From the UHGV virus genome UHGV-0390817: DNA of 42,021 nucleotides. The stretch is one strand, 5' to 3'. The notes below the pieces were generated by a model. It ran no database searches, was not told the origin of the DNA, and saw nothing but the letters and a program-made list of their open reading frames with translations. Positions 3,703 to 32,970 of this stretch are shown piece after piece. Each line of letters starts with the position of its first letter. Positions within the stretch are counted from its first letter, which is position 1. Source of the DNA: a virus. Made by a program: the position numbers and the translations under genes.

Positions 3703-3940
3703 ATTATTCCCGGCGCCGCATACGGAGCTGCGCCTGGATGTGTCGGACGAGATGGAGAAGGATTACCAGGAGTGCCGAAGGATGGCACAGTCGTGGGATG
3801 ATGGTAAGGACTGCGATACCTGCAGCTGGAGAACAGTGGCGATAGAGGACACCGGGTTGTGTGAGTGGCCCGAGGTAATAAGGCAGATGGACAAGGAACT
3901 TGTGAAGGAACCTGGGGATGCCGGTTGTAATCAGAATTAG
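3689..3940 (+). CDS. hypothetical protein
   Basis: 83-aa ORF overlapping the upstream stop and on the same strand as its neighbours. Confidence 0.4.
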   Translation: MRKIKLFPAPHTELRLDVSDEMEKDYQECRRMAQSWDDGKDCDTCSWRTVAIEDTGLCEWPEVIRQMDKELVKEPGDAGCNQN

Positions 3941-5296: not shown

Positions 5297-5468
5297 GTGT
5301 AATCCCTCATAAGACAGGCCTGTACTTTAACGGGACAATGCCGCAGGGTATGCAAGCAGTGATGTATCTGGTTTTATCCCCCATGACGTTTTCCAGATAC
5401 GATTAGGGCATCCTAGAGATAGGGTGTCCTTTTATTATGAGTAGCTTATACTCATTAAATATTCTAAT

Positions 5469-5497
5469 TTGACAGAATCGAACATTTGTTCTATACT
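5469..5497 (+). promoter_or_regulatory. promoter of the accessory island: -35 TTGACA, 17-bp spacer, -10 TATACT
   Basis: Consensus -35, exact 17-bp spacer and a 5/6 match at -10. A second extended -10 TGaTATAAT lies at 5586-5594, just before the RBS gggggac and the ATG at 5626. Confidence 0.55.
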
Positions 5498-5625
5498 GTG
5501 GTTACGAAGAGAAGATGTGGATGTGTTTTTGTAAGATTTGTGGAATTGGGAGGGGGATATTTGTATATTCTTTCCATTCGGTGTGTGATATAATGTAAGA
5601 AAAACGTCGAATTGGGGGACATAAA

Positions 5626-6609
5626 ATGGATAAAAAGCAAAGTGCAAATAATGAGAAAAAGGTATCAGTGGCTAATTTTAATGTAGTTTTTATGGGGGAC
5701 AAAGATGAGAGTCCGTTACTGGATTATTTTGACACTATTTTAATGCCGGCTTTGAAAAGTGGAATTACAAGAAGCCAAGGGGATAATACCTATTTGCTTA
5801 TGGATATTGAAGTTAATCAGGATACGGATTGTGAATATATATTGACAGGGTTGATTGTTAAAAGTACAGTTCTTGAAGTTAAATCTATGTTTGATGAGAA
5901 CGGGAATTTGGTCGAAAGAAATGATGTTTATCCAACGGCTCCATTTTCTACTTTTATAATTTACCTAAAAAATCATAGAATGATTTTAGTTGAAAATCAA
6001 AAAGGAAGTCCATCTTTGGACAGCTTCCGCTCAACTGTTAAGTATGTTTTAGATACGTACGTTGCAAGAGAGAACCATGCAAGAATGGAGCAGGAGAAAG
6101 AGCAGCTTCCAATTCCTCTTGTCAGTGTCGTGGGAATACCGCCTAAGGGTGGCATGATAGCGGCATTAAAACAGGTAGAAAAAATTTCAACATTGACTTT
6201 GAAGTTTTATCCGTTGAATGGTGATGGAGATATAGATTTATCTGAGATAATGAGCGGGATATCAAAAGAATTGCGTAGAAAAATAGGAAGTGATCGGGGA
6301 TCGGTAACATACCGATCACCAAAGAATATTAATGGAGTTATAGAGGTAGTAGAGGCAGCGGAAGGTACAGTTGAGCCTATTGTGGTGGCGAAGTATCCAG
6401 GAAGAAAAGGGGAATCCACGATTAAGTATAATGAAATATCTGATAGGAGAAAAATGCGCGTACCCGATGGAGAGAGAAATGCAGAGTTATCCAGCATGAT
6501 TAATCAGGGAAAAGAAATTGACAGTATAAATTATACTAGTGAGGAAAATAATAAAATATATTTGAGAAATCAAGGGAAAATAATAAAATTTGTTCGTAAG
6601 GAAAAATAA
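5626..6609 (+). CDS. unknown 327-aa cytoplasmic protein, first gene of the AT-rich accessory operon; candidate defence or abortive-infection component
   Basis: Clear RBS and ATG. GC content is far lower than the surrounding phage genes (roughly 33% against about 52%, estimated by eye). No recognisable catalytic motif. It is co-operonic with a 4-TM protein. Confidence 0.75.
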   Translation: MDKKQSANNEKKVSVANFNVVFMGDKDESPLLDYFDTILMPALKSGITRSQGDNTYLLMDIEVNQDTDCEYILTGLIVKSTVLEVKSMFDENGNLVERNDVYPTAPFSTFIIYLKNHRMILVENQKGSPSLDSFRSTVKYVLDTYVARENHARMEQEKEQLPIPLVSVVGIPPKGGMIAALKQVEKISTLTLKFYPLNGDGDIDLSEIMSGISKELRRKIGSDRGSVTYRSPKNINGVIEVVEAAEGTVEPIVVAKYPGRKGESTIKYNEISDRRKMRVPDGERNAELSSMINQGKEIDSINYTSEENNKIYLRNQGKIIKFVRKEK

Positions 6610-6631
6610 ACAATTTTGGAGGGGGATGATT

Positions 6632-7264
6632 ATGGATAATTTAAATCTTGATAATATTGAACAATTACTTCAATCTGAACCTTCTGAAAAGTTACTTTTT
6701 AAAGCAATCAAAGCTCTTAAAGTTGAAAAGAAGAATAGGAAATCACGATGGATATTAGTAGTTATATGTTGTATCCTCGGTTCCATAGTCGGAATTCATA
6801 AAGAAACAGTCACTATTTTCAGAGAAAGTATAGATGCTATTTTAAATGTTTCACTAGCACTTTTCGGAGTAATTTTCACTGGATATTCCTTGCTACAAGC
6901 CTTTATGAATAAACAGATGTTACTTCAACTTCTAAAAGACACAAAAGTATGTGACGGAGGAGAAAAGAGTAGATTACAAGATATCAATGAGAATTTTGTA
7001 TATTTAATGCTATTGTATGTTATTGCGATAATTGTAACATTGATTATGAAAATAGTGATGTTTTGTTTGCCTGACAGTTTTACATTATTTTTAAACATGA
7101 TAGTAAATAATGTGATTGCAGTAAGTTTAATTGCGGTTTATTTTATTTTTATTGGAATAATACTGTGGAGGACAGTTAGTTTCGTTTCTACAATTTTTCA
7201 ACTGTTCAATATATATGCTGTGACAAGAGTTCTTGAAATGATAGATGAGGAAGAAAAGCCATAA
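6632..7264 (+). CDS. small 4-TM membrane protein (about 210 aa), second gene of the accessory operon; candidate membrane effector
   Basis: The RBS ggaggggg precedes the ATG at 6632, 22 nt after the upstream stop. Four hydrophobic helices are present (ILVVICCILGSIVGI, NVSLALFGVIFTGYSLL, VYLMLLYVIAIIVTLIMKIVMF, VIAVSLIAVYFIFIGIILW). Confidence 0.7.
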   Translation: MDNLNLDNIEQLLQSEPSEKLLFKAIKALKVEKKNRKSRWILVVICCILGSIVGIHKETVTIFRESIDAILNVSLALFGVIFTGYSLLQAFMNKQMLLQLLKDTKVCDGGEKSRLQDINENFVYLMLLYVIAIIVTLIMKIVMFCLPDSFTLFLNMIVNNVIAVSLIAVYFIFIGIILWRTVSFVSTIFQLFNIYAVTRVLEMIDEEEKP

Positions 7265-7319: not shown

Positions 7320-7344
7320 ACCAAAACGATTGGAGGTGAGCCAG

Positions 7345-7920
7345 ATGGCATTAACGCCAAAACAGAAGATATTTGCAGATGAATACCTGATTGACCTTAA
7401 TGCCACCAGGGCTTACAAGGTTGCGTATCCGAGCTGCAAGAAGGATGAGGCCGCGGCGGTCAACGGTAGTAAGCTGCTAAGAAATACTAAGGTTGCGGAA
7501 TATATCCAGGAGCGCATGAAGGACCGGGAAAAGCGTACTGAGATTACCCAAGATTGGGTGCTGGAGGAGCTGCGGAAGATTGCCAGTGCAAACGGCACCG
7601 ATTTTGCACATGTTGTGCGGGAGCCGGTTATCCGGAACAACTCTTATGTTGTGGATCCAGATACCGGTCAGATGCAGACAAGGGATGTGGTTCGAATAAT
7701 CCCGACCGAAGAACTGCCAGAGGAGAAGCGGGCGGCTATCTCCGCAATCAAAGAAACTAAGTTTGGAATAAACGTGAAAACCTATGATAGGGTAAGAGCC
7801 CTGGAGCTCCTGGGGCGCCATCTGGGGATGTTTAAGGATAAGGTGGAGCTGTCCGGTGGCCTCGATATCGAAAAGACCAAACTGGATGACCTGCTCCAGC
7901 AGATGCGTGGCGGTGGCTAA
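7345..7920 (+). CDS. terS: terminase small subunit (Terminase_2-like)
   Basis: The N-terminus MALTPKQKIFADEYLIDLNATRAYKVAY is characteristic of this family. The RBS ggaggtg is present, and the gene immediately precedes the large terminase. Confidence 0.85.
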   Translation: MALTPKQKIFADEYLIDLNATRAYKVAYPSCKKDEAAAVNGSKLLRNTKVAEYIQERMKDREKRTEITQDWVLEELRKIASANGTDFAHVVREPVIRNNSYVVDPDTGQMQTRDVVRIIPTEELPEEKRAAISAIKETKFGINVKTYDRVRALELLGRHLGMFKDKVELSGGLDIEKTKLDDLLQQMRGGG

Positions 7921-9269
7921 TGAGTGCGGAGAGATTGCTGCTGTCGGATAAGTACAAGGCGTTCCTGCGCTGTGACGCCCCGGTGGAGTTCCTGGAAGGT
8001 ACCACGGCTGCCGGCAAGACTACAGTAGGGTTGTTTAAATTTATGCTCAAGGTAGCCGAATCGCCCAAAAAGCTGCACATCCTGGCTGCGGATGATACAG
8101 GCGCCGCTGAAAAAAACATCATCCAGAAGGACCTGGGCATCCTGGATGACTTCGGCGTACTGGTGGAGTACAAGGGCAACGGCGGCGGTGGATATGACAT
8201 GCCTCACATCCTCTTCCACACATCCGGCGGCGATAAGATTATCTTTGTTGTCGGCTACGGCAACAAGCGCAAGTGGAAGGATGCACTGGGCGGCCAGTAC
8301 GGATGCTTGTACATTGATGAGATTAACACGGCAGACATTGAGTTTGTGCGTGAGGCCGCCATGAGAAGCGATTACCTGATGGCCACGCTCAACCCGGATG
8401 ACCCGGGCCTGGATGTGTATAAGGAGTATATCAACTGTTCCAGGCCACTGCCTGAGTGGGAAGATGAAACACCAAAAGAGATAATGGATGAATTACAGGA
8501 GGAACCAAAACCCGGCTGGGTGCATTGGTTCTTTTCTTTTGTCCATAACCTGGGCCTGAGTAAGGAGAAGCTGGACCAGATTATGACGAACACGCCCAAA
8601 GGAACGAAAATCTGGAAGAATAAGATTCAAGGCCTGCGTGGTAAGGCAACCGGCCTTATTTTCTCCAACTTTGAGCGGTCTAAGCATGTCATCACAGTCC
8701 AGCAGGCCAAGACACTGAAATTCAAGAAGTTCACAGCAGCCCTGGATACGTCCTATTCTAGCAAGTCCCCGGATACCATAGCCATGATATTTCAGGGGAT
8801 TACGGATGACCGGAAGCTTGTCACTCTGGCTGAGAAGGTCTATAACAACGCCAAACTGGATGTCCCGCTGGCCCCCAGTGATACAGCGGTTAAGTTTGTG
8901 TCTTTCCTGGAGCAGTGCCGCAAGGACTGGGGTTTTGCCAAGGATGTGTATATAGACAATGCGGACCAGGCAACCATCACGGAGCTGCGTAAGTATAAAC
9001 GGCTTAAAGGCTGTCTGTATAACTTCTGGGATGCATATAAACAGCTGGAAATCATTGACCGTATCAACCTGCAGCTGGGCTGGATACAACAGGGCTGTTA
9101 CCTGGTGGTGGATACCTGCGTGGAACATCTATCCGAACTGGATCGGTACAGCTGGGATGACGAGAAGGACAAGCCGGAGGACCGAAATGACCATACCATT
9201 AATGCCAATCAGTATGCATGGATACCATACCGGAACCTGATTGGATTTGAGGAGGCTGAGAAGAAATGA
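7920..9269 (+). CDS. terL: terminase large subunit (PBSX/XtmB-like ATPase plus nuclease)
   Basis: 449 aa. Walker A GTTAAGKTT is present. Its size and its position between the small terminase and the portal support the call. Confidence 0.9.
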   Translation: MSAERLLLSDKYKAFLRCDAPVEFLEGTTAAGKTTVGLFKFMLKVAESPKKLHILAADDTGAAEKNIIQKDLGILDDFGVLVEYKGNGGGGYDMPHILFHTSGGDKIIFVVGYGNKRKWKDALGGQYGCLYIDEINTADIEFVREAAMRSDYLMATLNPDDPGLDVYKEYINCSRPLPEWEDETPKEIMDELQEEPKPGWVHWFFSFVHNLGLSKEKLDQIMTNTPKGTKIWKNKIQGLRGKATGLIFSNFERSKHVITVQQAKTLKFKKFTAALDTSYSSKSPDTIAMIFQGITDDRKLVTLAEKVYNNAKLDVPLAPSDTAVKFVSFLEQCRKDWGFAKDVYIDNADQATITELRKYKRLKGCLYNFWDAYKQLEIIDRINLQLGWIQQGCYLVVDTCVEHLSELDRYSWDDEKDKPEDRNDHTINANQYAWIPYRNLIGFEEAEKK

Positions 9270-10888
9270 GGTGGCTGAACAACATGAATGAGACTATCAA
9301 GCGGGGCATCCGCAGCTGGCTGAACGTGGTGCCGGCCAGCGGGAACTGCATCCAGATTAACGAGGTCCTGGACTTCGAGGCCAATGCCATCCGAAATCGC
9401 ATCTGGTACCGTGGTGATGGTAACGAGCTGGAGCAGATGTATCAGCAGGCTCCAGAGTACGCTGACAAATACAAGTTCTGGGCCAGTAGGTGTACACCGG
9501 GTATGGAGATGCGCAAGATACATACCGGCCTGCCCGGGCTGATTATCCGTATCCTGTCGGCTATCGTCCTGAATGACATGAACGATTTTGATTTTGCAGG
9601 TAACGACCAGCAGCGGCAGCTGTGGGAGGACATTGCAAAGGATAATAAGTTCGCTCGTAAGCTGGAGAAGGCCTTGAAGGAGGTCCTGTACATCGGGGAC
9701 GGCGCCTTCAAGGTCACGGTTGACACGACCGTCAGTGAGTATCCAATCCTGGAGTGGTATCCAGGAGAGCGGGTTGAGATTGTCCGGAACCGGGACCGGG
9801 TGAAGGAAGTTGTTTTCAAGACCCCCTACAAATCCGGGTATCAGCAGTATGTCCTGTATGAGCACTATGGATATGGCTACATCAAGAATGAGCTATGCAA
9901 GGGTGACACGCCGGTGCCCCTTAATGCCATCGATGCCACAAAGGGAATAAAAGATACGATGTTTGATGATACAGTCATGCTGGCCGTACCCTTGCAAGTC
10001 TATGAATCCACCAAATACGAGGGACGCGGTGGCAGCATTTTTGATGGTAAGCTGGACAGTTTTGATGCCTTTGACGAGGCCTGGTCCCAGTGGATGGATG
10101 CGCTGCGTGCTGGTCGGGCCAAGACGTACATACCGGACTGCCTGGTGCCACACGACCCGGAGACAGGGAAGGTCATCCGGCCGAACCCATTTGACGACCG
10201 ATATTTTGCTTCTGATAATGATATGTCAGAGGATGCAGATAACAAGGTCAATGTGGTGCAGCCAACTATCCCCCACGATAGTTATCTGGCGTCCTATTGT
10301 ACAGCTTTGGACCTGTGCCTGCAGGGCGTTATCAGCCCATCCACTCTGGGGATTGATGTCAAGAAGCTGGACAACGCCGAAGCGCAGCGCGAAAAGGAAA
10401 AAGCTACCCTGTACACCCGGAATGCTATTGTGGAGGCTCTGCAGGAGACTCTTCCGGAGCTGGTCAGCGCGGCAATCAACGCCTGCAATATCCTTCATGG
10501 TAAGGGGGTGGAGGAGGTCAAAGTGGATATCCCCTTCGGTGAGTACGCAAACCCATCCTTTGAGAGCCAGGTGGAGACCCTGGCCAAGGCTCGGCCTGGT
10601 GCCCCCATGATGAGTATTGAGGCCCAGGTAGAGGAGCTGTATGGGGACACCAAGGACGAGAAGTGGAAGCAGGAGGAGACAGCACGGCTGAAAGAGGAGC
10701 AGGGGATTGCGAAAGTGGAAGAACCCGGAATCAATACGGCTGCTGGCAGTTTTCGACTTAACATGAAGGGAGGAAAGCCAGATGAAGGTCAAGGTAATGA
10801 ACCGTCTGTACCAGATGAGCCAGAAGGAGTACCAGGGGCTGCTGCAGGTGGCAAAGGAACAGGTGCCATTGGGAATCTACGCAATTGA
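9266..10888 (+). CDS. portal protein (SPP1 gp6-like)
   Basis: 540 aa directly after the large terminase. The C-terminal tail is rich in Gly, Pro and Glu and looks disordered. Confidence 0.8.
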   Translation: MRWLNNMNETIKRGIRSWLNVVPASGNCIQINEVLDFEANAIRNRIWYRGDGNELEQMYQQAPEYADKYKFWASRCTPGMEMRKIHTGLPGLIIRILSAIVLNDMNDFDFAGNDQQRQLWEDIAKDNKFARKLEKALKEVLYIGDGAFKVTVDTTVSEYPILEWYPGERVEIVRNRDRVKEVVFKTPYKSGYQQYVLYEHYGYGYIKNELCKGDTPVPLNAIDATKGIKDTMFDDTVMLAVPLQVYESTKYEGRGGSIFDGKLDSFDAFDEAWSQWMDALRAGRAKTYIPDCLVPHDPETGKVIRPNPFDDRYFASDNDMSEDADNKVNVVQPTIPHDSYLASYCTALDLCLQGVISPSTLGIDVKKLDNAEAQREKEKATLYTRNAIVEALQETLPELVSAAINACNILHGKGVEEVKVDIPFGEYANPSFESQVETLAKARPGAPMMSIEAQVEELYGDTKDEKWKQEETARLKEEQGIAKVEEPGINTAAGSFRLNMKGGKPDEGQGNEPSVPDEPEGVPGAAAGGKGTGAIGNLRN

Positions 10889-11060
10889 GAAACAGGGGTA
10901 TGCGGAGCTGCGCTGTGATAAGTGCAGCAGCGTGACCCAGCTTAAGGACCTGACCAGACAGTTCAAGGCGCAGGGATTCAGGGTACATGCCAACAAAGGT
11001 GGCCAACTGATGGAGGGTGGAGCTGATGGAGCGGAAGGGGCGCTGATGAGTGCGACATAA
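10782..11060 (+). CDS. hypothetical 92-aa protein whose 5' end overlaps the portal 3' end by 107 nt in another frame
   Basis: A strong RBS aagggagga precedes the ATG at 10782, and the composition is coding-like. The long overlap leaves its reality uncertain. Confidence 0.35.
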   Translation: MKVKVMNRLYQMSQKEYQGLLQVAKEQVPLGIYAIEKQGYAELRCDKCSSVTQLKDLTRQFKAQGFRVHANKGGQLMEGGADGAEGALMSAT

Positions 11061-12537
11061 TGAGTATGATATAGGTGCTGCCTTCCAGGCCATAGAGGAT
11101 GAGCTTATAAAGTCTATGATACGGAACATGGACCGCCATCGCGCCGAGGAGACTAAGGAGGGTATTGAGTGGTCCATGTGGCAAACGGAACAGTTGAAGG
11201 CCCTGGAGAAGTATAAGAAGGATAACCAAAAGCGATACCGAAAGCAATTCCAGGACCTTAACAAGGAAATGGGTGAACTGATACGGATATCCAGGCAAAG
11301 AGGCAACATGCAGCAGGAAATCCAGATTCTGAATGCAATCCGCAAAGGATTTCCGGCCAGGAAAATCAACAAGGGAGCCACTGCAGAGTTCTTCCGGCTG
11401 AATGACCGTAAGCTGGAAGCGCTTATCAAGGCCACTACCAATGACATGGAGCGGGCTGAGACCGCAGTTCTCCGCATGGCTAACGACCAGTATCGGAAGG
11501 CCATTTTTAATGCCCAGGTATATGCCAATTCAGGCGCCGGTACCTATGAAAAAGCCGTGGATATGGCCACCAGGGATATGCTCTCACGGGGCCTTAACTG
11601 TGTGGAGTATGCCAATGGTGCCCGCCATACCCTATCAGATTATGCCGACATGGCCATCCGGACGGCCAGCAAGCGGGCGTATCTGCAAGGAGAAGGAGAG
11701 AAGCGTCAAGAATGGGGGATTACTACCGTGATTGTCAACAAGCGCGGGAACCCGTGTCCGAAGTGCCTGCCATTTGTCGGTAAGGTCCTGATTGACGACG
11801 TTTGGTCCGGCGGAAAGAAATCCGATGGGCCGTATCCTCTCATGAGTAAGGCCATTGCAGCCGGCCTGTACCATCCCAGATGTAAGGACAGCCACGCAAC
11901 ATACCTTCCTGGGATTTCCACAGCAGATGATACTTGGACGAGGGAGGAACTGGATGCCGTTGAACGGGCAAATCAGAAGGAGACAAAGCGGCAGTATGCA
12001 GAGCGTCAGGCTGAAAAGTTCAGGCGGCTGGTAGCTTATTCGCTGGACAAGGAAAATCAGGAACGGTATATGGCAAAGAGAGAAGAATGGGGAACTATTG
12101 CAAAAGATACAGAACCTGATATAATAAAGCCAATAGACACAGAAGAGGAAATACAGGTGCATCCAGTCGGAAAGATAGACAAAGAGGTATATAAGTGTAT
12201 TACGGAAGACATAGTCACAGACGAAGTTATTATAACAGATGAGCGTATCGGACATATTAAAGAACGCCATCCCAATGATTACGAAAAATACTGTGAGTAT
12301 TTGAAACTAATTGTGGAGGAACCGGACTATATTGTTGAAACAAAGAAACCCAACACAGCGTTAATCCTAAAAGAAATAAAGGAATCTAACGAACGGCAGT
12401 TTAAAACTGTGCTTAGATTGACAACATCAACGGATAATCCAGGATTTAAGAATTCCATCATAACATTTATGAAAATAGATGAAAAGGAATGGAATAGATT
12501 GCTTAGAAATAAGCTAATCCTTTACAAAAAGGAATAA
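11050..12537 (+). CDS. MuF-family (SPP1 gp7-like) minor head / head morphogenesis protein with an extra AT-rich C-terminal domain of about 150 aa that looks toxin- or nuclease-like
   Basis: Its position after the portal is typical. The central region containing GNPCPKCLPFVGKVLIDD is MuF-like. The C-terminal tail from about 12060 has a compositional shift and the motif ITDERIGHIKERHP. The start is a GTG; an alternative ATG lies at 11116. Confidence 0.7.
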   Translation: MRHNEYDIGAAFQAIEDELIKSMIRNMDRHRAEETKEGIEWSMWQTEQLKALEKYKKDNQKRYRKQFQDLNKEMGELIRISRQRGNMQQEIQILNAIRKGFPARKINKGATAEFFRLNDRKLEALIKATTNDMERAETAVLRMANDQYRKAIFNAQVYANSGAGTYEKAVDMATRDMLSRGLNCVEYANGARHTLSDYADMAIRTASKRAYLQGEGEKRQEWGITTVIVNKRGNPCPKCLPFVGKVLIDDVWSGGKKSDGPYPLMSKAIAAGLYHPRCKDSHATYLPGISTADDTWTREELDAVERANQKETKRQYAERQAEKFRRLVAYSLDKENQERYMAKREEWGTIAKDTEPDIIKPIDTEEEIQVHPVGKIDKEVYKCITEDIVTDEVIITDERIGHIKERHPNDYEKYCEYLKLIVEEPDYIVETKKPNTALILKEIKESNERQFKTVLRLTTSTDNPGFKNSIITFMKIDEKEWNRLLRNKLILYKKE

Positions 12538-12697
12538 AAATGATACAATGTGAGTAACATAAAAGAGAAGTTATCTGAGGTGGAAGATTTCGTACCCGTC
12601 CACACGCCGATGGTTTGACAGGGGAAACCCGAGAGATGCAGGAGCATGGTACGCCTGCCAGATAACTTCTTGATTATGTGAATTTATAGAATTTTAA

Positions 12698-12729
12698 TAC
12701 CACCAGTCAGTAATGGCTGGTGGTATTTT
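12698..12729 (+). terminator. strong rho-independent terminator after the MuF gene
   Basis: A perfect 9-bp stem TACCACCAG/CTGGTGGTA with a 10-nt loop, followed by TTTTATTT. Confidence 0.7.
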
Positions 12730-12733
12730 ATTT

Positions 12734-12749
12734 GTTGCGATATCGCAAC
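12734..12749. promoter_or_regulatory. perfect 16-bp palindrome GTTGCGATATCGCAAC (copy 1), 8 nt upstream of the RBS of gene 12764
   Basis: The sequence is read directly. An identical copy occurs at 27154-27169. Confidence 0.6.
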
Positions 12750-12763
12750 GGAAAGGAGCATAA

Positions 12764-13105
12764 ATGAAGTACAGGAAAAAACCAGTGGTAATTGAGGCAT
12801 TCCAGTGGACGGGAGGGCCGGAGCAGGAGGATGACCCTGAGTGGATTATCGAGGCAGTCAGGAATGGGAGTGCCTGGTTTGAAAACGAGGGAACCCCAGA
12901 AGTGAAATTCATGATTCGGACACTGGAAGGGGTACACGAAGCCAGTATCGGGGATTACATTATCCGTGGTATAGCTGGGGAGATATATCCATGTAAGCCG
13001 GATATCTTTCTTGCAACTTACGAGCCGGCAGTGACGAAAGTTTCCATGAATGTTACGGCACATCTGGATGAAGATGAAATCAAACATGAAACGGACGGGT
13101 TATAA
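12764..13105 (+). CDS. small acidic hypothetical protein; candidate immunity partner of the MuF C-terminal domain
   Basis: The RBS aaaggagc precedes the ATG. The gene sits between the MuF and scaffold genes, where structural modules are normally contiguous. 113 aa, rich in Glu and Asp. Confidence 0.5.
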   Translation: MKYRKKPVVIEAFQWTGGPEQEDDPEWIIEAVRNGSAWFENEGTPEVKFMIRTLEGVHEASIGDYIIRGIAGEIYPCKPDIFLATYEPAVTKVSMNVTAHLDEDEIKHETDGL

Positions 13106-13253
13106 TTTGCGATAAGCACGCGGGATTATCCTGGGTGCTATTTTTACGCCCAAACACGAGCATGGCTTTAAACGGCTGCGTGGCCAGTGACACTGATGAC
13201 AATGGATGAAACGAAAATCACAGGGTGACACCCTTAAAATGGAGGTATGGATT

Positions 13254-13886
13254 ATGAAACGTATGAACTTACAGTTATTTGCTGAGCCCACGGGTGGAGC
13301 GGGAGGAACTGAGCCGCCAGCAGGAGGTCAGAACCAGCAGCAGACACAGACCCAAACGGGACAGCAGGCATCCCTTGCAATTGATTATGCCAAAATCCAG
13401 CAGATGCTGGAGGGAACCCTGGCAGCTAAGGAGGACACGGCCCTGAAAGCCTACTTCAAGCAGCAGGGGCTCAGCCAGGAAGAAGTAGAGCAGGCGATTG
13501 CTGCATTCAAGCAGCAGAAGGCGGCATCGCAACCAGATGTGGCTGCGTTACAGCAGCAGGCCACTCAAGCCCAGGCCCTCGCCCAACAGGCACAGATGCA
13601 GGCCGCGGCAACCATGGCCGCGGTATCCCTGGGAATTGACGCCAAGACAATCCCTTATGTCCTCAAGATGGCTGATTTAAGTCAGGTCATGGGACAGGAT
13701 GGGAAAATCAATGATGAGGCACTTAAGGCAGCCCTGAACAAGGTGCTGGAGGACGTGCCGGCACTGAAACCCCAGGCACCAGGAACCACCGGATTCATCC
13801 AGGTGGGCGTAGCCAGTGGGCAGCAACAGACAGCCAATGAACCAATGACGCTGAAAGACGCTATTTCAGCAGCACTTAAAAAATAA
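13254..13886 (+). CDS. head scaffolding protein
   Basis: The N-terminus MKRMNLQLFAE is the hallmark LQLFA motif of Firmicutes siphovirus scaffold proteins. The protein is rich in Gln and Ala with coiled-coil character and directly precedes the major capsid gene. Confidence 0.7.
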   Translation: MKRMNLQLFAEPTGGAGGTEPPAGGQNQQQTQTQTGQQASLAIDYAKIQQMLEGTLAAKEDTALKAYFKQQGLSQEEVEQAIAAFKQQKAASQPDVAALQQQATQAQALAQQAQMQAAATMAAVSLGIDAKTIPYVLKMADLSQVMGQDGKINDEALKAALNKVLEDVPALKPQAPGTTGFIQVGVASGQQQTANEPMTLKDAISAALKK

Positions 13887-13903: not shown

Positions 13904-14869
13904 ATGGCAGTAACATTAGCACAGGCAAAGCTTAAGACACAGGACAAATTGTCTATGGCGGTCATTGATGAATTCCGTAAGTCCAGTTTTTTAATGGATC
14001 ATATGATTTTTGATGACTGCGTATCTCCTGTAGGTAGTGGGGCAACCATGACTTATGGGTATTACCGCGTGATCACACCATCTACAGCCAGCTTCCGCGC
14101 AGTTAATGCGGAATATACGGCGGACGAGGCCAAGAAACAGAAGTACACCACAGATATTAAGATTTTTGGAGGCGCATTCGAGATTGACCGTGTGATTGCG
14201 GATATGGGAGGCGTGGATGATGAGGTGACCTTCCAGATGCAGCAGAAGATAAAGTCTGCATCCGCACTGTTTTCAGAGACACTAATTATTGGTGATTCCA
14301 GCAAGAATGAAAAGAGTTTTGACGGTTTGGATGTGGCTGTAACTGGAAGCTCCACAGAGTACAAGCCCAGCGCGGCAATTGACCTTTCCACTACAGCCAA
14401 GGTGACCGAAAATTATCAGCTGTTTCTGGACCAGTTGGACGAGTTCCTGATGGGCCTGGACGGCAAGCCGGATTTTATTGGCGGTAATCTGAAATTGATT
14501 GCGAAAATTCGGGCATGCGCTCGCAGAGCCGGTATGTACCAGGTAACAAAGAATGATTTCGGCCAGCAGATTGAAAGCTACGGAGATATCCCACTGGTAG
14601 ATTTCGGCGCAAAGAGCGGTTCCAACGATCCGATTGTATCCATCGATACGGCATCCGGCACAAAAGGAGAGACATCCCTGTATGCGGCAAGGATCGGGCT
14701 GGATGGATTCCACGCGGTTTCTCCTTCTGGAGGACTCCCTGTTAAGCAGTGGCTGCCGAAATTTGAGGAAGCCGGCGCGGTAAAGAAGGGTGAGGTAGAG
14801 ATGCTGGCAACAGCGGCTCTTAAGGCAACCAAAGCGGCCGGTATTATGCGCAAAATCAAGGTGCAGTAA
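13904..14869 (+). CDS. major capsid protein
   Basis: 321 aa immediately after the scaffold gene, with a strong RBS. The size is typical for an HK97-fold capsid protein. Confidence 0.7.
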   Translation: MAVTLAQAKLKTQDKLSMAVIDEFRKSSFLMDHMIFDDCVSPVGSGATMTYGYYRVITPSTASFRAVNAEYTADEAKKQKYTTDIKIFGGAFEIDRVIADMGGVDDEVTFQMQQKIKSASALFSETLIIGDSSKNEKSFDGLDVAVTGSSTEYKPSAAIDLSTTAKVTENYQLFLDQLDEFLMGLDGKPDFIGGNLKLIAKIRACARRAGMYQVTKNDFGQQIESYGDIPLVDFGAKSGSNDPIVSIDTASGTKGETSLYAARIGLDGFHAVSPSGGLPVKQWLPKFEEAGAVKKGEVEMLATAALKATKAAGIMRKIKVQ

Positions 14870-17610: not shown

Positions 17611-17925
17611 ATGTTCGAGGACTGGGACCTGATAGTTTCCAGCTTCCTGTCGCAGTACGGGTTGCGTATACGAACGAAGGAATTTGAGTCAGTCTCTTGG
17701 GACGAGTTCAGGGCGCTGATTGCCGGCCTGTCCCCGGAGACTGCCTTGGGACGGGTGGTGGCCATCCGGTCAGAGACGGATAAGGACATTATCAAGCATT
17801 ATACAAAGGACCAGCGCCGGATATATGATGACTGGCGTAACCGGGAAATGAAAGAAATGGATGAGAAAACCTTCGAGAAGGAAATGGCCAACCTGGAGAA
17901 GATGTTCGCAGCCATGTGTGGATAG
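17611..17925 (+). CDS. second tail assembly chaperone (T-like), in the +1 frame relative to the first
   Basis: Position. A 13-nt gap separates it from the first chaperone, and no obvious slippery site is seen. Confidence 0.4.
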   Translation: MFEDWDLIVSSFLSQYGLRIRTKEFESVSWDEFRALIAGLSPETALGRVVAIRSETDKDIIKHYTKDQRRIYDDWRNREMKEMDEKTFEKEMANLEKMFAAMCG

Positions 17926-17936
17926 GAGGTGGTACC

Positions 17937-20900
17937 GTGGCTGACAGCGTAGGCCAGATTGGCCTTGACCTTGTGGTCAACCAGAATCAATTCAAGCAGC
18001 AGATGGCGGGCATCCAGGGGCTGGCCAAAAAGGCAGGTGCCGCCCTGGCGGCGGCATTTGCGGTAAAAAAAATCATAGACTTCGGTGCAAAATGCATTGA
18101 ATTGGGTTCCGACCTTTCGGAAGTCCAGAATGTGGTGGATGTCACATTCCCACGGATGTCCAAACAGGTGGATGACTTCGCTAAGAATGCCATAACCTCT
18201 TTCGGTTTGTCAGAGACCATGGCCAAGAAGTTTACCGGAACGTTCGGGGCAATGGCCAAGGCTTTTGGCTTTGGTGAACAGGCAGCCTATGAGATGTCCA
18301 CGGCCTTGACTGGCCTGGCCGGTGATGTGGCATCCTTCTACAACATTAGCCAGGACGAGGCCTACACCAAATTAAAATCTGTATTTACGGGTGAGACGGA
18401 GACCCTTAAGGACCTGGGCATCGTCATGACCCAGAGCGCCCTGGACAGTTACGCCCTGGCGAACGGCTATGGCAAGGTAACGGCCAAGATGTCTGAGGCT
18501 GAGAAGGTGGCCCTGCGGTATAAGTTTGTGCAGGACCAGCTGTCACTGGCATCCGGGGACTTCATACGGACGGCTGACGGCTGGGCAAACCAGGTTAGGG
18601 TCCTTAAGCTCCAATTTGACAGCCTTAAAGCCACAATCGGTCAGGGCCTTATAAATGTACTGACCCCGGTCATTCAGGTAATCAACCGTATCATCAGCAA
18701 GCTGATGAGCCTGGCCAATGCCTTTAAGGCTTTTACCGAAATGGTGACAGGTAAGAAGGGCTCGGGAGGAGCATCTACCGCCGCCGCAGGAATGGAGGCA
18801 GTGGCACAGGCCGCTGACAAGGCCGGAGCAGCTGCCGGAGGGGCAGGAGGTGCCGCTAAAAAGGCCGCCAAGGACATGAAAAGTGTCAGCACAGGCATTG
18901 ATGAACTCAATATCATCAACCCGGAGACAGACTCCGGTAGCGGTGGTTCCGGAGGCGGTACGGATGGTGGGTACTCTGCGGATGAGTTCGACATGGGCGA
19001 ACTTGATACATCGGCCGTGGATGAGATGGACAGCAAGTATGCAGGGCTAATTGAAAAGGCAAAGGAACTTGCTGGGTTGTTCAAAGAAGGCTTCTGGGAT
19101 GGTTTTGGAGATACATCCGTATTTGACAGCATTCAAGCCTCCATAGACAGCATCAAGGGAAGCCTGAGGGATATATTCACATCGCCGGAGGTGTTGGCTT
19201 CGGCTAATTCATTTGCTGACCAGATGGCCTATAGCCTGGGGCAGGTTGCAGGTTCCATGGCGAGCGTAGGGGCGTCCATAGCGGATAACCTGCTGGGCGG
19301 TATCAGCCTGTTCCTGCAGCAAAATAAAGACCGAATCAAGGAATATCTCGTGTCCATTTTCGACATAGGCTCACGGATGGCAGAAATAAGCGGGAATTTT
19401 TCCAAAGCACTTGCAACGGTATTTTCATCCCTCAGGAGTAACAGCGCGAAGCAGATTACAGCAGATATTATCGGAATATTTTCCGAGGCCTTCATGGGGG
19501 CCACGGAATTGGCTGGGACATTTGCGGCAGATGTGCTGGACACCATTACAGCCCCATTCGTAGAAAATGCGGATTATATCAGGACAACCCTGGAGGATAC
19601 ATTCAGCGCGGTTGAACCTATCTTTTCTACAATCAAAGATTTGGTTGCGGAGACTTTTGAAAAGATTGGCACAACATATGATGAACATGTGGCGCCAATG
19701 CTGGCAACCTTCAAACAAGGGTTCACGGAAATCGGAACACTGTTGCTTGATGTCTATAACACATATTTCCTTCCAGTATTGCAGAACCTATCCACACGAT
19801 TTGTGGAATTCAAAGACCAGTACCTCAGTCCATTAATTGATAAATTTATGGAATTTGGCGGAAAAGTGGCTGATGCAGTCACCAAATTGTGGACGGGGGC
19901 CATACAGCCATTCATCGAATGGTTTATTACAAATGTAGCGCCAGTTATAGCTTTATGTTTGCAGAGCGCCATTGACACATTCTTCGGATTCTGGGAATCC
20001 GTTTCCGGCATCATAGAGGGATTGCTCACGGCGCTAGGTGGTGTGATTGACTTCATTGTCGGCGTATTCACTGGTGACTGGAGTCTTGCTTGGGAAGGAA
20101 TCAAGGAGATATTCTCCGGTATCTGGGAGGCATTGAAGGAGCTTGTATCTGGTGCCGTAACATTCATCCAAAACGTTGTTAACATGGCTTGGACTGCCAT
20201 ATCCGGGGCAACCAGTACCATCTGGAACGGAATTAAGGCACTCTTGAATACTCTTTGGAATTGGCTTAAGTCTCTGGCCAATACATTGTTCAATGCTATC
20301 AAGGCATCCATCAGCACAGCCTGGGAGAATGTCAAGAGTAAGACATCAGAAATATGGGAAAGTATCAAGGAATTTGTTTCAGGCCTGTGGGATACAATTA
20401 AGACGGCAGTGGATGAGAAGTTCACGGCTATGAAAGACGCGATTACCGGCGCATGGGACACGGTGAAGGAAAAGACAAAAGAAACCTGGGACGGTATCTG
20501 GGCAGATATAAAGGGCATTATCAACATGATTATTGATGGTGTGGAGAACATGGCCAACAGGGTTATTGATGCGATTAATGCCATGATAGACGCCGTAAAT
20601 GAGGTGGCGGATAAGATACCGGGCATCGGCGCCGATTTTATCCCGAATATACCAAACATCCACCTTCCACGTCTGGCCCAGGGCGGTTTCGTCCGCGCCA
20701 ACACCCCGCAGCTGGCCATGATTGGTGACAACAGGCACTATGGTGAGATTGTGGCGCCTGAGGATAAGATGCAGGAAATGGTGGACCGGGCGGTGGCTTT
20801 AGCGTCCCAAACAAGCAGTAATGGCATGAGTGAGCAGTATCTTTCCGTCATGGCAGACCTGCTGCAGCGTATCATTGACCTGATAGAACAGATGGATTTA

Positions 20901-20984
20901 ACGGTCAACATAGATATCAGGGAAATTAAAAAGAAACTTGTTGAACTGGATAAGCGTAACGGATACACGCTGCGCACAACGTAA
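17937..20984 (+). CDS. tail tape measure protein
   Basis: About 1015 aa. It contains Ala/Gly-rich coiled regions and 13 tandem 11-residue repeats with Trp at a fixed position. The start is a GTG after the RBS ggaggtgg. Confidence 0.85.
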   Translation: MADSVGQIGLDLVVNQNQFKQQMAGIQGLAKKAGAALAAAFAVKKIIDFGAKCIELGSDLSEVQNVVDVTFPRMSKQVDDFAKNAITSFGLSETMAKKFTGTFGAMAKAFGFGEQAAYEMSTALTGLAGDVASFYNISQDEAYTKLKSVFTGETETLKDLGIVMTQSALDSYALANGYGKVTAKMSEAEKVALRYKFVQDQLSLASGDFIRTADGWANQVRVLKLQFDSLKATIGQGLINVLTPVIQVINRIISKLMSLANAFKAFTEMVTGKKGSGGASTAAAGMEAVAQAADKAGAAAGGAGGAAKKAAKDMKSVSTGIDELNIINPETDSGSGGSGGGTDGGYSADEFDMGELDTSAVDEMDSKYAGLIEKAKELAGLFKEGFWDGFGDTSVFDSIQASIDSIKGSLRDIFTSPEVLASANSFADQMAYSLGQVAGSMASVGASIADNLLGGISLFLQQNKDRIKEYLVSIFDIGSRMAEISGNFSKALATVFSSLRSNSAKQITADIIGIFSEAFMGATELAGTFAADVLDTITAPFVENADYIRTTLEDTFSAVEPIFSTIKDLVAETFEKIGTTYDEHVAPMLATFKQGFTEIGTLLLDVYNTYFLPVLQNLSTRFVEFKDQYLSPLIDKFMEFGGKVADAVTKLWTGAIQPFIEWFITNVAPVIALCLQSAIDTFFGFWESVSGIIEGLLTALGGVIDFIVGVFTGDWSLAWEGIKEIFSGIWEALKELVSGAVTFIQNVVNMAWTAISGATSTIWNGIKALLNTLWNWLKSLANTLFNAIKASISTAWENVKSKTSEIWESIKEFVSGLWDTIKTAVDEKFTAMKDAITGAWDTVKEKTKETWDGIWADIKGIINMIIDGVENMANRVIDAINAMIDAVNEVADKIPGIGADFIPNIPNIHLPRLAQGGFVRANTPQLAMIGDNRHYGEIVAPEDKMQEMVDRAVALASQTSSNGMSEQYLSVMADLLQRIIDLIEQMDLTVNIDIREIKKKLVELDKRNGYTLRTT
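20088..20516 (+). repeat. 13 tandem 33-nt (11-aa) hendecad repeats inside the tape measure gene (xWxxIKxxxxG)
   Basis: Seen in the translation: AWEGIKEIFSG, IWEALKELVSG, ..., TWDGIWADIKG. Confidence 0.7.
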
Positions 20985-28692: not shown

Positions 28693-30153
28693 CTATGATA
28701 TATAAAAATGAATATGTAAATGCCCTTGACTGCGGTCAAAAACAATCTCTTTGACTATCTTGCGGAGGGCATTCCCTTTTATCTCATAACTGATATTTGG
28801 GTCTGCCAGGATCTCATGCACATGCGCAATCTGGCGCATGATATCTTCCTTGCTTGGAACCTTGGCAGGAGACTGTTCTGCCTGCCTGCGGAGTCTTTCG
28901 GCATCAGCCATGAGTTCTTCCCTTTCAGCCTTCAGACGGAGCTTATTCTGCTTATATTCCTCCAGGGTGTCAATTTCATTCTCGTAAGCTTCCCTGATAC
29001 GCCGCTCCTTGACTTCTAAGCGGGCAAGTGCCTCCTGAATGGCGACTTCTTCGGCGTTTACAGCATCATCGGTTTTTTGGATGTATTCATATTCCAGTTC
29101 ATTTGTTTCAAGGACTTCTTCCAGAGATTCAATCACAGCTTTTTCCGCCAGGTGTACGGCCAGGCAGCAGGAACCCGGATGCATCCCCTTTGCATACTTC
29201 CAGCACTGGAAGAAGTCAGGCCGCTTCTTCTGGTCATTGGAACGATTGTAGCCAAGGCTGCCGCCGCATATGCTGCATTTGAGCAAACCGGAAAGCCAGT
29301 GGACATTGTTGGAAACCTCCCGGCGTTTCTGGGGCCGGTATTCCTTTTCAATCCGCTTCTGAACATCGTCAAATAGGGAGGTGACGGAGGAACGTACCTC
29401 GTGGGTGCCCTGGAAGGAATACCCATTCCATATGACCTCGCCAATATAAAAGCGGTTGGCAAGAATCCGGTTAATGCCCCGGCGGTCGAATAGGTTGCCG
29501 CGGCGGGTCCGGTATCCTCTGGCATTGGCAGCCCTGGCCGTGGCGGTCATATCCTTCCCGCTATGGTAGGTCTGGAAAATATATTCAACGATGGCATATG
29601 ATTTTTCCTCCACGACGAAAGGCTTGCCTTCCCCCACAGCCCGGTAGCCGAGGCAGGGGGTGGCCTGATAGCCTTCGCGGAGGGCCTTTTCCGTCATACC
29701 GCGCAACACTTCGCCGGAGAGGTTGATGGAATAATATTCGTCAAACCATTCTATTATGGTTTCGATTAGCCGGCCAAACATGCCCTCCATGATGGGTTCC
29801 GATACGCTCTTAATTTCTACATCACATTTTTTTCTCAGGATGCCTTTGTAGAAGGTGCTTTCCTCCTGGTTTCTGGCGAACCGGGAGAACTTCCAGAGAT
29901 AGAGCCGCTTAAATGGGGCCGGCTTCTGTGATTTGGCAATGGCTATCATGCGCTGGAACTCTGGCCGGTTGTCTGCTTTGCGGCCGGAGATTCCTTTCTT
30001 CTCAATAAATATGTATTCTTTGGGAATTATAAAACCGTCCGCCTTGGCAGCGTCCATGATGACGCGTATCTGGGCATCCGGAGACAGCTCTGTCTGATCG
30101 TCTGTGCTGACACGAACGTAGGCGGCGCCGATTTCTAGTGGTGTTGCTGGCAT
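28693..30153 (-). CDS. large serine recombinase (phage integrase)
   Basis: The N-terminal resolvase catalytic domain IGAAYVRVSTDDQ carries the catalytic Ser. A recombinase domain, a zinc-ribbon (CSICGG...C) and a C-terminal coiled coil follow. The start is taken at the Met after the RBS aggagatga; the track ORF starts at 30210. Confidence 0.9.
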   Translation of the reverse strand: MPATPLEIGAAYVRVSTDDQTELSPDAQIRVIMDAAKADGFIIPKEYIFIEKKGISGRKADNRPEFQRMIAIAKSQKPAPFKRLYLWKFSRFARNQEESTFYKGILRKKCDVEIKSVSEPIMEGMFGRLIETIIEWFDEYYSINLSGEVLRGMTEKALREGYQATPCLGYRAVGEGKPFVVEEKSYAIVEYIFQTYHSGKDMTATARAANARGYRTRRGNLFDRRGINRILANRFYIGEVIWNGYSFQGTHEVRSSVTSLFDDVQKRIEKEYRPQKRREVSNNVHWLSGLLKCSICGGSLGYNRSNDQKKRPDFFQCWKYAKGMHPGSCCLAVHLAEKAVIESLEEVLETNELEYEYIQKTDDAVNAEEVAIQEALARLEVKERRIREAYENEIDTLEEYKQNKLRLKAEREELMADAERLRRQAEQSPAKVPSKEDIMRQIAHVHEILADPNISYEIKGNALRKIVKEIVFDRSQGHLHIHFYIS

Positions 30154-30376
30154 TATATCATCTCCTGTTCCTATCATGTATATGAGTTTAGGGGATGTTT
30201 CAATTCTCATTTCGGTCCATATTATAACCCATATTACAGCCTGTAAGATTTTGGTGAGCTTTGAAAAAAGGGTATAAAAAATACGCCCCTTGCCAGGACG
30301 CTCCAGGAATGATATAATTTACTTGCTTAGGGTAATTATATCTTCCAGGCGTACCTGGTAAGAGAAAATCTATGTG

Positions 30377-30409
30377 AAAAGCTTCTGTGTTCCCGCACAG
30401 GGGCTTTTT
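30377..30409. terminator. bidirectional intrinsic terminator (A-tract, 13-bp stem, T-tract)
   Basis: AAAAGCTTCTGTG-ttcccg-CACAGGGGCTTTTT. It lies immediately downstream of the minus-strand gene 30419..31099. Confidence 0.6.
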
Positions 30410-30418
30410 GCTTACTAT

Positions 30419-31099
30419 TTATTTTGTGGCAACAAATGTGGCCGATTTATTAGACCAGAAACTCGGAGAAAATTTAATCTCAAGAGTTTTCCAATCTTCA
30501 GGAACCTGATATGCTATAACGCCGTTCATTTTTTTACCTGCAGCAACAGAACCATCTAATTGGTTCTTTCCTTTTCCTTCAGGAGCCTGCAAGCCAAGAA
30601 TATCTTGAGTGACAGAATAGTCATCACAATATGCCTCGAAGCTCATCATTGAGCTTACGGATATATCCTTATCTGAATTATTGGATATTTCAAATTCACA
30701 TAAGACAAAAATATTTCCTTCGTCTGGTTTTAAGAAGTCTGAGCCTTTTGATTCTGTTGTTCCAAGCAGTGATACTTGAACGCCCTTAATGTCTGCAACT
30801 TCACCCACATCAAAATTGGTTTTTTCGGCAACTGTAGATTCGGGGGCAGTTGTTTCTTCTTTTTGGTTTGAATTGTTGCTTGGGGTTGTGGTAGCAGTGG
30901 CATTGGAAGGGGTTTCCTCTTTGCTTTTACTGCCGCCAAAGCAAGAGCCAATCAAACCAATCACAACTACTATAATAATAGCCGTAAGACACCCTCCTGG
31001 ACCTTGTTTTTTTCTGCACTGTGGACATATCTTTGCTCCATAAGGTATCTCAGTTTTACAGTGCTTACAGATTTTTGTTGTTGGTTTTTCTTTTCCCAT
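30419..31099 (-). CDS. membrane-anchored protein: N-terminal zinc ribbon (CKHCK...CPQC), one TM helix, Ser/Thr-rich linker and a DUF4352-like beta-sandwich domain; a lysogeny-module moron
   Basis: The motifs are read from the translation. The region is AT-rich and lies on the same strand as the integrase and repressor. Confidence 0.6.
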   Translation of the reverse strand: MGKEKPTTKICKHCKTEIPYGAKICPQCRKKQGPGGCLTAIIIVVVIGLIGSCFGGSKSKEETPSNATATTTPSNNSNQKEETTAPESTVAEKTNFDVGEVADIKGVQVSLLGTTESKGSDFLKPDEGNIFVLCEFEISNNSDKDISVSSMMSFEAYCDDYSVTQDILGLQAPEGKGKNQLDGSVAAGKKMNGVIAYQVPEDWKTLEIKFSPSFWSNKSATFVATK

Positions 31100-31164
31100 A
31101 CTCTTTTCCTCTTTTCATTTGTTTTATTAAAAGCCATAGGCTCTTTAATCATAAATCATTCCCA

Positions 31165-31905: not shown

Positions 31906-31930
31906 AACGAACCCTCCTCAATGTATAATA

Positions 31931-32641: not shown

Positions 32642-32646
32642 TCAAA

Positions 32647-32970
32647 TCAGTCCTCATTATTTATTTCGGACAGTAGTTTGATTAGACGCATTTTCTGTTC
32701 AACAGACATCTGCTTACCATTTCTGGCCACAAGGCGTTCCACATCCGCATAAGTGGGTTCTGGAACCACCTTCTTTTCTCTATCGTCGAAGTCATCAAGC
32801 GACAACCCAAGAACATGAGCGATAGATTTAAGCGTTTCAAGTTTTGGGTCTTTTGTGGCACCGCTTAATATCTTATTCAACGTTCCCAGAGGGACTCCAG
32901 ATTTTTCAGATAATTCCTCCGTGGTTAATCCTAACTTTTTTTTGTATTCTGCAATTTTCTCCAGTCCCAT
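32647..32970 (-). CDS. XRE-family HTH repressor (cI / ImmR-like)
   Basis: HTH LTTEELSEKSGVPLGTLNKILSG. Transcribed divergently from a Cro-like gene across an operator-rich intergenic region. Confidence 0.85.
   Translation of the reverse strand: MGLEKIAEYKKKLGLTTEELSEKSGVPLGTLNKILSGATKDPKLETLKSIAHVLGLSLDDFDDREKKVVPEPTYADVERLVARNGKQMSVEQKMRLIKLLSEINNED

Follow-up and report, generated by a model that had tools for sequence, protein, structure and literature searches.

Polymorphic toxins carried at the C-terminus of phage MuF head-morphogenesis proteins were defined on two domain families, MuF1 (PF04233) and MuF2 (PF06152), and are restricted to temperate phages; a small immunity open reading frame (ORF) lies downstream in 89% of the set (Jamet et al. 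2017, PMC5576092). Among the polyvalent proteins that carry PBECR domains, the MuF-PBECR fusion is the simplest architecture and was predicted to be packaged and injected, and PBECR2 was reported only in phage-type proteins (Iyer et al. 2017, PMC5512222). The paper that described the skipping-rope RNA motif (Weinberg et al. 2017, PMC5737381) reports no self-cleavage of the RNA and proposes a trans-acting function; a functional study of this RNA was not found in the literature. Here we describe a locus in the UHGV virus genome UHGV-0390817 (42,021 nt, hereafter the window), from a prophage of a gut Clostridium-like bacterium, where a MuF2 head protein ends in a PBECR2 domain and its gene is directly followed by a gene for a skipping-rope small RNA (sRNA). 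The RNA was present on the same strand just downstream of PBECR2 in all 182 loci retrieved through the domain.

The MuF2-PBECR2 head protein

The ORF at 11050-12537 encodes a protein of 495 aa, which agrees with the MuF protein of about 495 aa that a sequence-only reading of the window had described, and it contains the His/Arg motif (VIITDERIGHIKERHP) pointed out there. Pfam divides the protein into a Phage_min_cap2 domain ending at aa 328 and a PBECR2 domain at aa 371-493, so that the last ~150 aa lie outside the MuF domain, as had been proposed. PBECR2 scored 60.5 bits in the context of the whole protein and 63.9 bits with the domain alone, against a cut-off of 27.1; PBECR was among the families named beforehand as candidates for residues ~340-495. 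PBECR3 gave a weaker Pfam match. In PHROGs, aa 5-347 correspond to phrog_581, a minor head protein (E 7e-76), and aa 354-495 to a 146-aa family of unknown function. The features of the locus are as follows.

11050..12537, + strand: MuF2-PBECR2 fusion gene, 495 aa, GTG start, stop codon TAA at 12535-12537 (ORF list)
11077..12033, + strand: Phage_min_cap2/MuF2 head-morphogenesis domain, aa 10-328 (Pfam PF06152, E 3e-35)
12034..12159, + strand: linker, in which the GC drop begins and the swap junction is located at ~aa 347, nt ~12090 (alignment to locus L150; GC at third codon positions, GC3, 0.24)
12160..12528, + strand: PBECR2 domain, predicted BECR-fold endoRNase, aa 371-493 (Pfam PF18810)
12521..12549, + strand: sigma-70-type promoter of the sRNA (-35 TTTACA at 12521-12526, 17-nt spacer, extended -10 TGaTACAAT at 12541-12549)
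12570..12666, + strand: skipping-rope sRNA (Rfam RF02924, 48.2 bits against a gathering threshold of 36.7)
12696..12737, + strand: intrinsic terminator of the sRNA (14-bp hairpin at 12696-12727, then a T-run)
12764..13105, + strand: 113-aa ORF, phrog_419, function unknown, ~230 nt downstream of the toxin gene and not a conserved partner

The structure of the PBECR2 domain was modeled with AlphaFold2 from the C-terminal 142 aa and an alignment of 39 sequences, which gave a predicted local distance difference test (pLDDT) score of 93.4 and a predicted template modeling (pTM) score of 0.83. The single-sequence AlphaFold model of the full-length protein reached a pLDDT of only 38.7. The modeled domain begins with two N-terminal strands, followed by two helices (model residues 44-53 and 57-70), a sheet of four strands and a last helix at the C-terminus. 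This includes the arrangement of the BECR fold, an N-terminal helix followed by a sheet of four to five strands, and the model supports a match of the predicted fold to BECR/RelE-type RNase toxins. A profile search against PDB sequences produced nothing meaningful (E > 0.3), and a Foldseek search against the PDB gave no significant E-value, with BrnT and 7vd7 as the highest-probability matches. Helix 44-53 bears the invariant His49, which corresponds to His402 of the protein, and strand 115-123 bears Ser116 and Thr119. His402 is part of an ERIGH motif in the first long helix (codon 12253-12255) and was invariant in alignments of 33, 39 and 66 sequences. His407, Arg456, Asp462 and the triplet Lys467-Asn468-Ser469 were at least 90% conserved, and Thr472 was invariant in the close set and varied between Thr and Ser in the diverse set.

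The occurrence of PBECR2 was surveyed exhaustively with HMMER in 1.84 billion representatives of clusters at 50% identity. The domain was found in 876 clusters, in 529 of them at E <= 1e-10, and all matches listed have it at their C-terminal end. Among 66 listed representatives with a length of at least 300 aa there were 36 with Phage_Mu_F, 24 with Phage_min_cap2, two with VG15 and one with a portal domain. At the same genomic position other domains take the place of PBECR2. The MuF protein of locus L150 shares 62% identity with the window protein across aa 3-347 (…YSLDKENQERYMAKREEW); past this point the two are unrelated, and the L150 protein ends in an ADP-ribosyltransferase (ADPrib_exo_Tox). 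Locus L124 combines Phage_Mu_F with DUF6883, a toxin family that a 2026 preprint (10.64898/2026.08.28.747851) describes as BECR-type, and further MuF genes at this position end in DUF6883 or in an unassigned domain. Variable C-terminal toxins on a conserved scaffold, as in L150 and L124, are a property of the MuF polymorphic toxins. The swap of toxin domains at one junction is the defining behavior of polymorphic toxins and supports an origin by recombination. The polymorphic-toxin architecture claimed from the letters alone was thus borne out, with MuF2 and PBECR2 in one protein encoded next to the portal gene and other toxin domains on orthologous scaffolds.

Two apparent stand-alone PBECR2 proteins were rejected as such. 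The 155-aa protein P0001 (100% identical) is a gene call on the truncated 3' end of a MuF gene, which is fused there to reversed HTH/M78 genes, and the 126-aa protein P0017 is the distal part of a MuF-PBECR2 frame broken at CCCTTTT. In three loci (L002, L005, L007) identity to the window starts at ~11908, at the last ~54 codons of the MuF core, and the segment abuts HTH_3 and Peptidase_M78 genes in reversed orientation. The toxin domain, the RNA and the genes for scaffold and capsid are all preserved, and these loci represent either a derivative formed by deletion or rearrangement or an element of the satellite type. In L009 (~3822-3830), and also in L010-L014, the MuF and PBECR2 frames are one base apart at CAC CCT TTT GTC. 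The site is a perfect -1 slippery heptamer, C_CCT_TTT, and the conserved motif spans the shift, with …PPMHPF before it and CRC… after it. The offset stems either from the loss of 1 nt in a run of T or from programmed -1 frameshifting with two products, a short MuF and a long MuF-PBECR2 protein; the sequence is identical across independent assemblies.

The C-terminal module differs from the rest of the gene in composition. In 200-nt windows the GC content falls from 0.54-0.56 at 11500-11900 to 0.31-0.37 at 12100-12600. From the MuF N-terminal part to the PBECR2 part it drops from 0.52 to 0.34, and GC3 drops from 0.60 to 0.36; GC3 is 0.24 in the linker, compared to 0.60-0.65 in the N-terminal MuF part, terL and portal. 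The segment 12137-12537 (GC 0.344, z = -2.3 against all 400-nt windows of the 42 kb) is one of four low-GC islands in the window, of which 5300-7100 is even lower. The last 142 aa are indeed rich in Lys, Glu and Ile (E 14%, I 13%, K 13%), as had been noticed, and differ from the A/R/E/K-rich N-terminal part. If the domain were encoded with the codon usage of its neighbors its GC content would be 0.434 instead of the observed 0.344, so amino acid composition accounts for only about half of the drop.

The sharp GC drop had been taken as a sign that the domain was acquired by recombination. This interpretation is supported, with one qualification. The GC drop sets in at the domain-swap junction (~nt 12090), and the swapping supports recombination. 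A recent event is not indicated, since in 20 of 20 diverse loci the PBECR2 domain was 6-24 GC points below its flanks (flank GC 0.35-0.64), which makes low GC a standing property of the cassette and no sign of recent transfer into UHGV-0390817. The low GC would agree with a cassette that circulates among phages, with limits set by the embedded promoter described below, or with both. The strongest low-GC island of the window, 5300-7100 (GC 0.285-0.37 against a mean of 0.49), is located directly upstream of terS and carries ORFs 5626..6609 (327 aa) and 6590..7264 (224 aa), for which Pfam, PHROGs and PADLOC gave no match. More low-GC islands occur at 30350-33300 beside a serine recombinase gene, where a 225-aa ORF (30419..31099, minus strand) has a weak PHROG match to Sie-like (superinfection exclusion) proteins.

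The MuF gene is part of a packaging and head module with the order terS (7330-7920), terL (7920-9269), portal (9266-10888), a 92-aa ORF and MuF (11050), followed downstream by genes for scaffold (13206-13886), major head protein (13904-14869) and tape measure (17916-20984). On the basis of this gene order and the serine recombinase encoded at 28693-30210 the element is a temperate siphovirus-type prophage. Homologues of the MuF-PBECR2 protein sit within bacterial chromosomes. Assemblies of Enterocloster clostridioformis and E. bolteae hold more than 120 variants of the 495-aa protein at 94-100% identity, annotated as 'phage minor capsid protein', and one weak match was found among 50,697 records of deposited phage genomes. 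The MuF-PBECR architecture is already known and is common among Enterocloster prophages. Both the N-terminal domain of the MuF superfamily, here PF06152 of the two families PF04233 and PF06152, and the position after the portal gene in the head module of a temperate phage are as found for MuF polymorphic toxins.

The skipping-rope RNA gene and its linkage to PBECR2

The match to RF02924 at 12570-12666 (E 1.5e-8) covers the full length of the model, and this is the sole Rfam family in the whole window. Folding of the RNA region gave a z-score of -6.2, with an outer stem reaching ~12557-12679. In 35 RNAs from different loci, stems P1, P2 and P4 and a loop-loop pseudoknot, which joins 12578-12583 to 12645-12650 in the window, were 98.3% paired. 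Compensatory changes occurred in 15 of 22 pairs, which was matched in none of 500 shuffles. A hairpin and T-run is present at the equivalent place 3' of the RNA in most of the aligned loci. By score threshold, covarying stems and Rho-independent terminator the RNA is a member of the skipping-rope family.

The same promoter precedes the RNA in 106 of 114 unique upstream contexts, with TTTACA as the -35 box in 105 and the extended TG in 78 of them. The spacer is always 17 nt and the -10 box is TATAAT or one mismatch off. In 102 contexts the distance from the end of the -35 box to the end of the stop codon is 11 nt, so that the box falls within the codons for the conserved Leu-Tyr-Lys in the C-terminus …ILYKKE*. 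The distance from the stop codon to the RNA is only 29-43 nt, which leaves no ORF between toxin stop and RNA. The sRNA gene, which the sequence-only reading had not included, is a self-contained transcription unit that overlaps the toxin gene, a moron layout within the late operon. In locus L116 the promoter block (…ACTTTACAAATCTGAATAA…) is kept in the absence of a PBECR2 ORF, which indicates that the RNA gene is a self-contained module extending from the -35 box to the terminator.

Several loci show variations around this unit. In L022 (3440-5560) an insertion sequence with a 623-aa transposase on the minus strand is located just after the -10 box of the sRNA promoter, together with a ~140-nt duplication of the 3' end of the toxin gene, giving a toxin-RNA gap of 2.27 kb. 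In L278, L293, L239, L059, L070, L076, L296 and L297 the skipping-rope RNA is present in two or three tandem copies, which frequently belong to divergent subtypes; in L239 and L293 one of the copies is upstream of the PBECR2 domain. A tRNA gene follows ~330 nt past the RNA in L052 (3849-3920) and L053 (3890-3961), and a GP20-b RNA motif (RF03003) ~250 nt past it in L092 (3790-3850).

The association was examined from both sides. Loci were collected starting from the protein by peptide patterns of this PBECR2 subfamily, and in this set, near-duplicates included, the RNA was found in 182 of 182 loci. These comprise 14 of 14 metagenome loci, 80 of 80 IMG/VR loci with domain identities of 55-99%, 80 of 80 genome loci (Lachnospiraceae, Oscillospiraceae, Ruminococcus, Butyricicoccus, Eubacterium, Phascolarctobacterium and others), and 8 of 8 relatives of a more distant member. 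Among the 80 IMG/VR loci one is cut by the contig end and the RNA of L022 is set apart by the insertion sequence. The RNA is the only conserved neighbor of the PBECR2 gene.

Starting from the RNA, IMG/VR was scanned with a pattern built from PBECR2-linked RNAs. This gave at least 80 loci, and 79 of the 80 listed were confirmed by the covariance model. Among the matches listed, 43 had a PBECR2 domain ending 25-48 nt upstream, one had a weak PBECR2 hit on the opposite strand, four were uninformative, and 31 of 75 informative loci carried the RNA without PBECR2. In PBECR2-negative loci the RNA follows, among other arrangements, MuF genes ending in the ADP-ribosyltransferase, DUF6883 or an unassigned domain, each with a small ORF ahead of the RNA (105 aa in L150, 72 aa in L124 and 53 aa in L110), or it is found after a 72-aa Cys-rich ORF, upstream of terminase. 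In L129 (4903-6402) and ~10 similar loci, on phage contigs of ~150-165 kb, the RNA is between Bro-N and DUF3800 genes. In such ~160-kb phages the DUF3800 gene is 650 nt from the RNA, and these loci may correspond to the 'possible relationship' with DUF3800 mentioned by Weinberg et al. DUF3800 was reported to be RNase H-like (PMC10910872); it was considered as a relative of PBECR2 and rejected, as Pfam gave no sequence signal. Weinberg et al. also report that the RNA is associated with a nearby protein, and the association of toxin and RNA may have been noticed before, without the assignment of a nuclease. The link to PBECR2, the promoter within the last codons and the 182/182 figure come from the present analysis.

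The genes behind the toxin-RNA unit are highly variable. The first ORF belonged to 95 families in 146 loci, the largest being the scaffold protein (11 of 146), and the 113-aa family was found in only 2 of 146. The 113-aa protein itself had no Pfam or PADLOC match. In contigs with identical toxin and RNA this slot holds a 71-aa gene or, as in L001, L003 and L004, a 164-aa Tad2-like gene (PF11195, anti-Thoeris family), and it looks like a hot spot for accessory and anti-defense genes. A homologue of the 113-aa protein is present in L174, where no PBECR2 was detected. A small immunity ORF immediately downstream of the toxin, as found with MuF polymorphic toxins, is absent from the locus.

Proposed mechanism and alternative explanations

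We consider it likely that the protein is a MuF2 head protein with a swappable C-terminal effector slot, here occupied by a PBECR2 allele, which is packaged and injected and acts as an RNase on host RNA. The MuF part would take a few copies of the fusion into the capsid via the portal. The gp7 protein of phage SPP1 is known to enter the capsid through the portal. The fusion protein would leave the capsid together with the DNA, and PBECR2, as a small metal-independent endoRNase of the BECR fold, would then cut RNA of the newly infected cell, with the His in the first long helix and the Ser/Thr in the last strand as candidate catalytic residues. Packaging, injection, RNase activity and target are predicted by analogy to SPP1 gp7 and from the literature on MuF and PBECR proteins.

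Some points weigh against this proposal. The candidate active site was placed from conservation and secondary-structure position and not by superposition, and the searchable literature holds no experiment on any PBECR2 protein. Furthermore, the small downstream immunity ORF that is usual for MuF toxins has no counterpart here, which could mean that the domain is harmless to the producer or is no toxin. Late expression in a cell close to lysis does not of itself need immunity, so the absence of an immunity gene is uninformative on injection.

The skipping-rope RNA is taken to be functionally tied to the PBECR2 domain, and its role can be explained in different ways. It is quite possible, though short of probable, that it is a general phage or moron sRNA in the slot after the MuF gene, linked to PBECR2 by shared ancestry and by a promoter that overlaps the end of the ORF by chance; PBECR2 would then need no immunity, being made late in a doomed cell. 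The RNA is found behind MuF genes whose C-terminal domains are of at least four kinds and also occurs in non-MuF contexts, L116 retains the promoter block without a PBECR2 ORF, and the lack of self-cleavage and the proposed trans-acting function fit such a role. However, the 182/182 association holds down to ~43-55% PBECR2 identity and on two MuF families, and it also spans stop-to-stop ORFs of 125-146 aa, possibly stand-alone, and the 95 downstream families. Such co-occurrence exceeds what synteny alone usually gives, and PBECR2 stands alone among the toxin types at this slot in having no small ORF before the RNA.

A more tentative explanation, which extends the proposed mechanism and does not replace it, is that the sRNA is an RNA antitoxin or a pseudo-substrate inhibitor of the PBECR2 RNase. 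The RNA would be expressed constitutively in lysogens and would shield both lysogens and the producer from the RNase of sibling virions. It would fit this role that PBECR2 never occurs without the RNA, that the short gap after the stop codon has no room for an ORF and that the first downstream ORF is hypervariable. Other MuF toxins at the slot have a small ORF before the RNA and PBECR2 alone lacks one. The near-consensus promoter makes the RNA independent of late transcription, the solitary RNAs among the listed matches resemble orphan immunity genes, and there are tandem arrays of two to three divergent copies (L059, L070, L076, L278, L293, L296, L297). BECR RNases are moreover directed at structured RNAs such as tRNAs. 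On the other hand, the same RNA subtype (98-103 bits with model R1) is found after MuF-ADP-ribosyltransferase and MuF-DUF6883 genes that have their own putative immunity ORFs, and in unrelated phages the RNA adjoins DUF3800, Bro-N and terminase genes. The tight linkage could also reflect co-inheritance within one group of Clostridia phages, and we know of no precedent for an RNA that inhibits a BECR toxin. It is doubtful that the skipping-rope RNA is the cognate PBECR2 immunity factor, with stand-alone and tandem copies as orphan immunity against PBECR2-armed virions.

An improbable alternative to injection is that PBECR2 acts in the producing cell, where it would process transcripts, mature the sRNA, or tether the sRNA to the procapsid as a non-catalytic RNA-binding module. 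RegB of phage T4 is an RNase that processes phage or host transcripts. For MuF-C of phage Mu gp30 a non-catalytic RNA-binding module has reportedly been proposed. Both mRNA targeting and an RNA-binding role for inactive versions were raised by Iyer et al. (PMC5512222). The neighboring RNA could serve as ligand or substrate, the domain is preceded by an internal Shine-Dalgarno-like GAGGA and a GTG (12157), and other loci have ORFs of ~125-146 aa. Inactivity is unlikely given the invariant His402 and the conservation of Ser469/Thr472, Arg456 and Lys467 across 39-66 diverse sequences. Furthermore, the domain is fused to the portal-associated MuF and was C-terminal in all matches listed, which suits delivery better than cytoplasmic housekeeping, and several of the apparent stand-alone genes are gene-calling artefacts of truncated or frameshifted fusions.

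A processive antiterminator RNA of the put type, suggested by the order promoter, RNA, terminator and late genes, is unlikely as the near-consensus constitutive promoter would drive capsid genes in lysogens. That the 113-aa gene (12764-13105), which the sequence-only reading had proposed to pair with the toxin in toxicity tests, encodes its cognate immunity protein is extremely improbable: it is on the same strand ~230 nt downstream and most MuF toxin genes have an ORF of <150 aa next downstream (PMC5576092), but a complete sRNA transcription unit with promoter and strong terminator separates it from the toxin gene, a Tad2-like or 71-aa gene replaces it next to identical toxin and RNA, its family occupies the slot at just the two loci mentioned, and its homologue in L174 occurs where PBECR2 was not detected.

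Comparison with known systems

With respect to the protein, the locus adds little, as a further gut-prophage case of two known schemes, the PBECR polyvalent proteins and the MuF polymorphic toxins. Compared to the MuF-PBECR proteins of Iyer et al. (PMC5512222), the window protein has the same domain family in the same C-terminal position with the same pattern of His and Ser/Thr; its N-terminus belongs to the Phage_min_cap2 branch, and that paper makes no mention of a conserved RNA neighbor. With the MuF polymorphic toxins (PMC5576092), including the (p)ppApp-synthetase type (PMC12226406), it shares the MuF1/MuF2 domain, a portal-adjacent gene in a temperate phage, the variable C-terminal toxin and an origin in human-gut Firmicutes. 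The difference is at the 3' side, where those toxins have a small immunity ORF and the window gene has an sRNA gene instead.

The window domain is 5-14% identical to colicin D, colicin E5, the CdiA-CT toxins of E. coli NC101 and EC869, BrnT and RelE, and in comparison with these BECR toxins it has extra N-terminal strands and a C-terminal helix. Colicins and the BECR toxins of contact-dependent inhibition and toxin-antitoxin systems have protein inhibitors, whereas delivery in a phage capsid is predicted for the window toxin. The RNA at 12570-12666 agrees with the skipping-rope motif (RF02924; PMC5737381) in score, stems, 3' terminator and phage context.

Any wider importance would come from the context. 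In one direction the pair does not separate, since no PBECR2 toxin was seen to lack the RNA, and their sequences overlap through a promoter within codons. The pairing makes two open questions testable together, those of a predicted RNase effector and of an orphan structured RNA. If the RNA neutralizes or guides the RNase, it would represent a novel form of immunity, or a novel partner, in polymorphic toxin systems, and a function would be assigned to the skipping-rope RNA, which has been known since 2017 and is one of the 'sophisticated' orphan RNAs. As an immunity factor it would be RNA-based and expressed from a promoter within the last codons of the toxin gene.

In layout the locus resembles type III toxin-antitoxin systems (ToxIN, CptIN), where an endoRNase gene is beside the gene for a small structured RNA with transcription signals in between; the occasional tandem RNA copies add to the resemblance. 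However, the type III antitoxin is an array of 36-nt repeats upstream of the toxin gene, with a terminator between the two, whereas the window RNA is a single pseudoknotted fold of ~100 nt that is located downstream and has its own promoter. The toxins differ as well, with the ToxN/Kid fold in type III systems and a predicted BECR fold in the window. Membership in type III was rejected since the locus has neither an upstream repeat array nor a toxin of the ToxN, CptN or TenpN families, which process and bind the RNA. By architecture and toxin family the locus is thus not a type III toxin-antitoxin system, though it might work like one.

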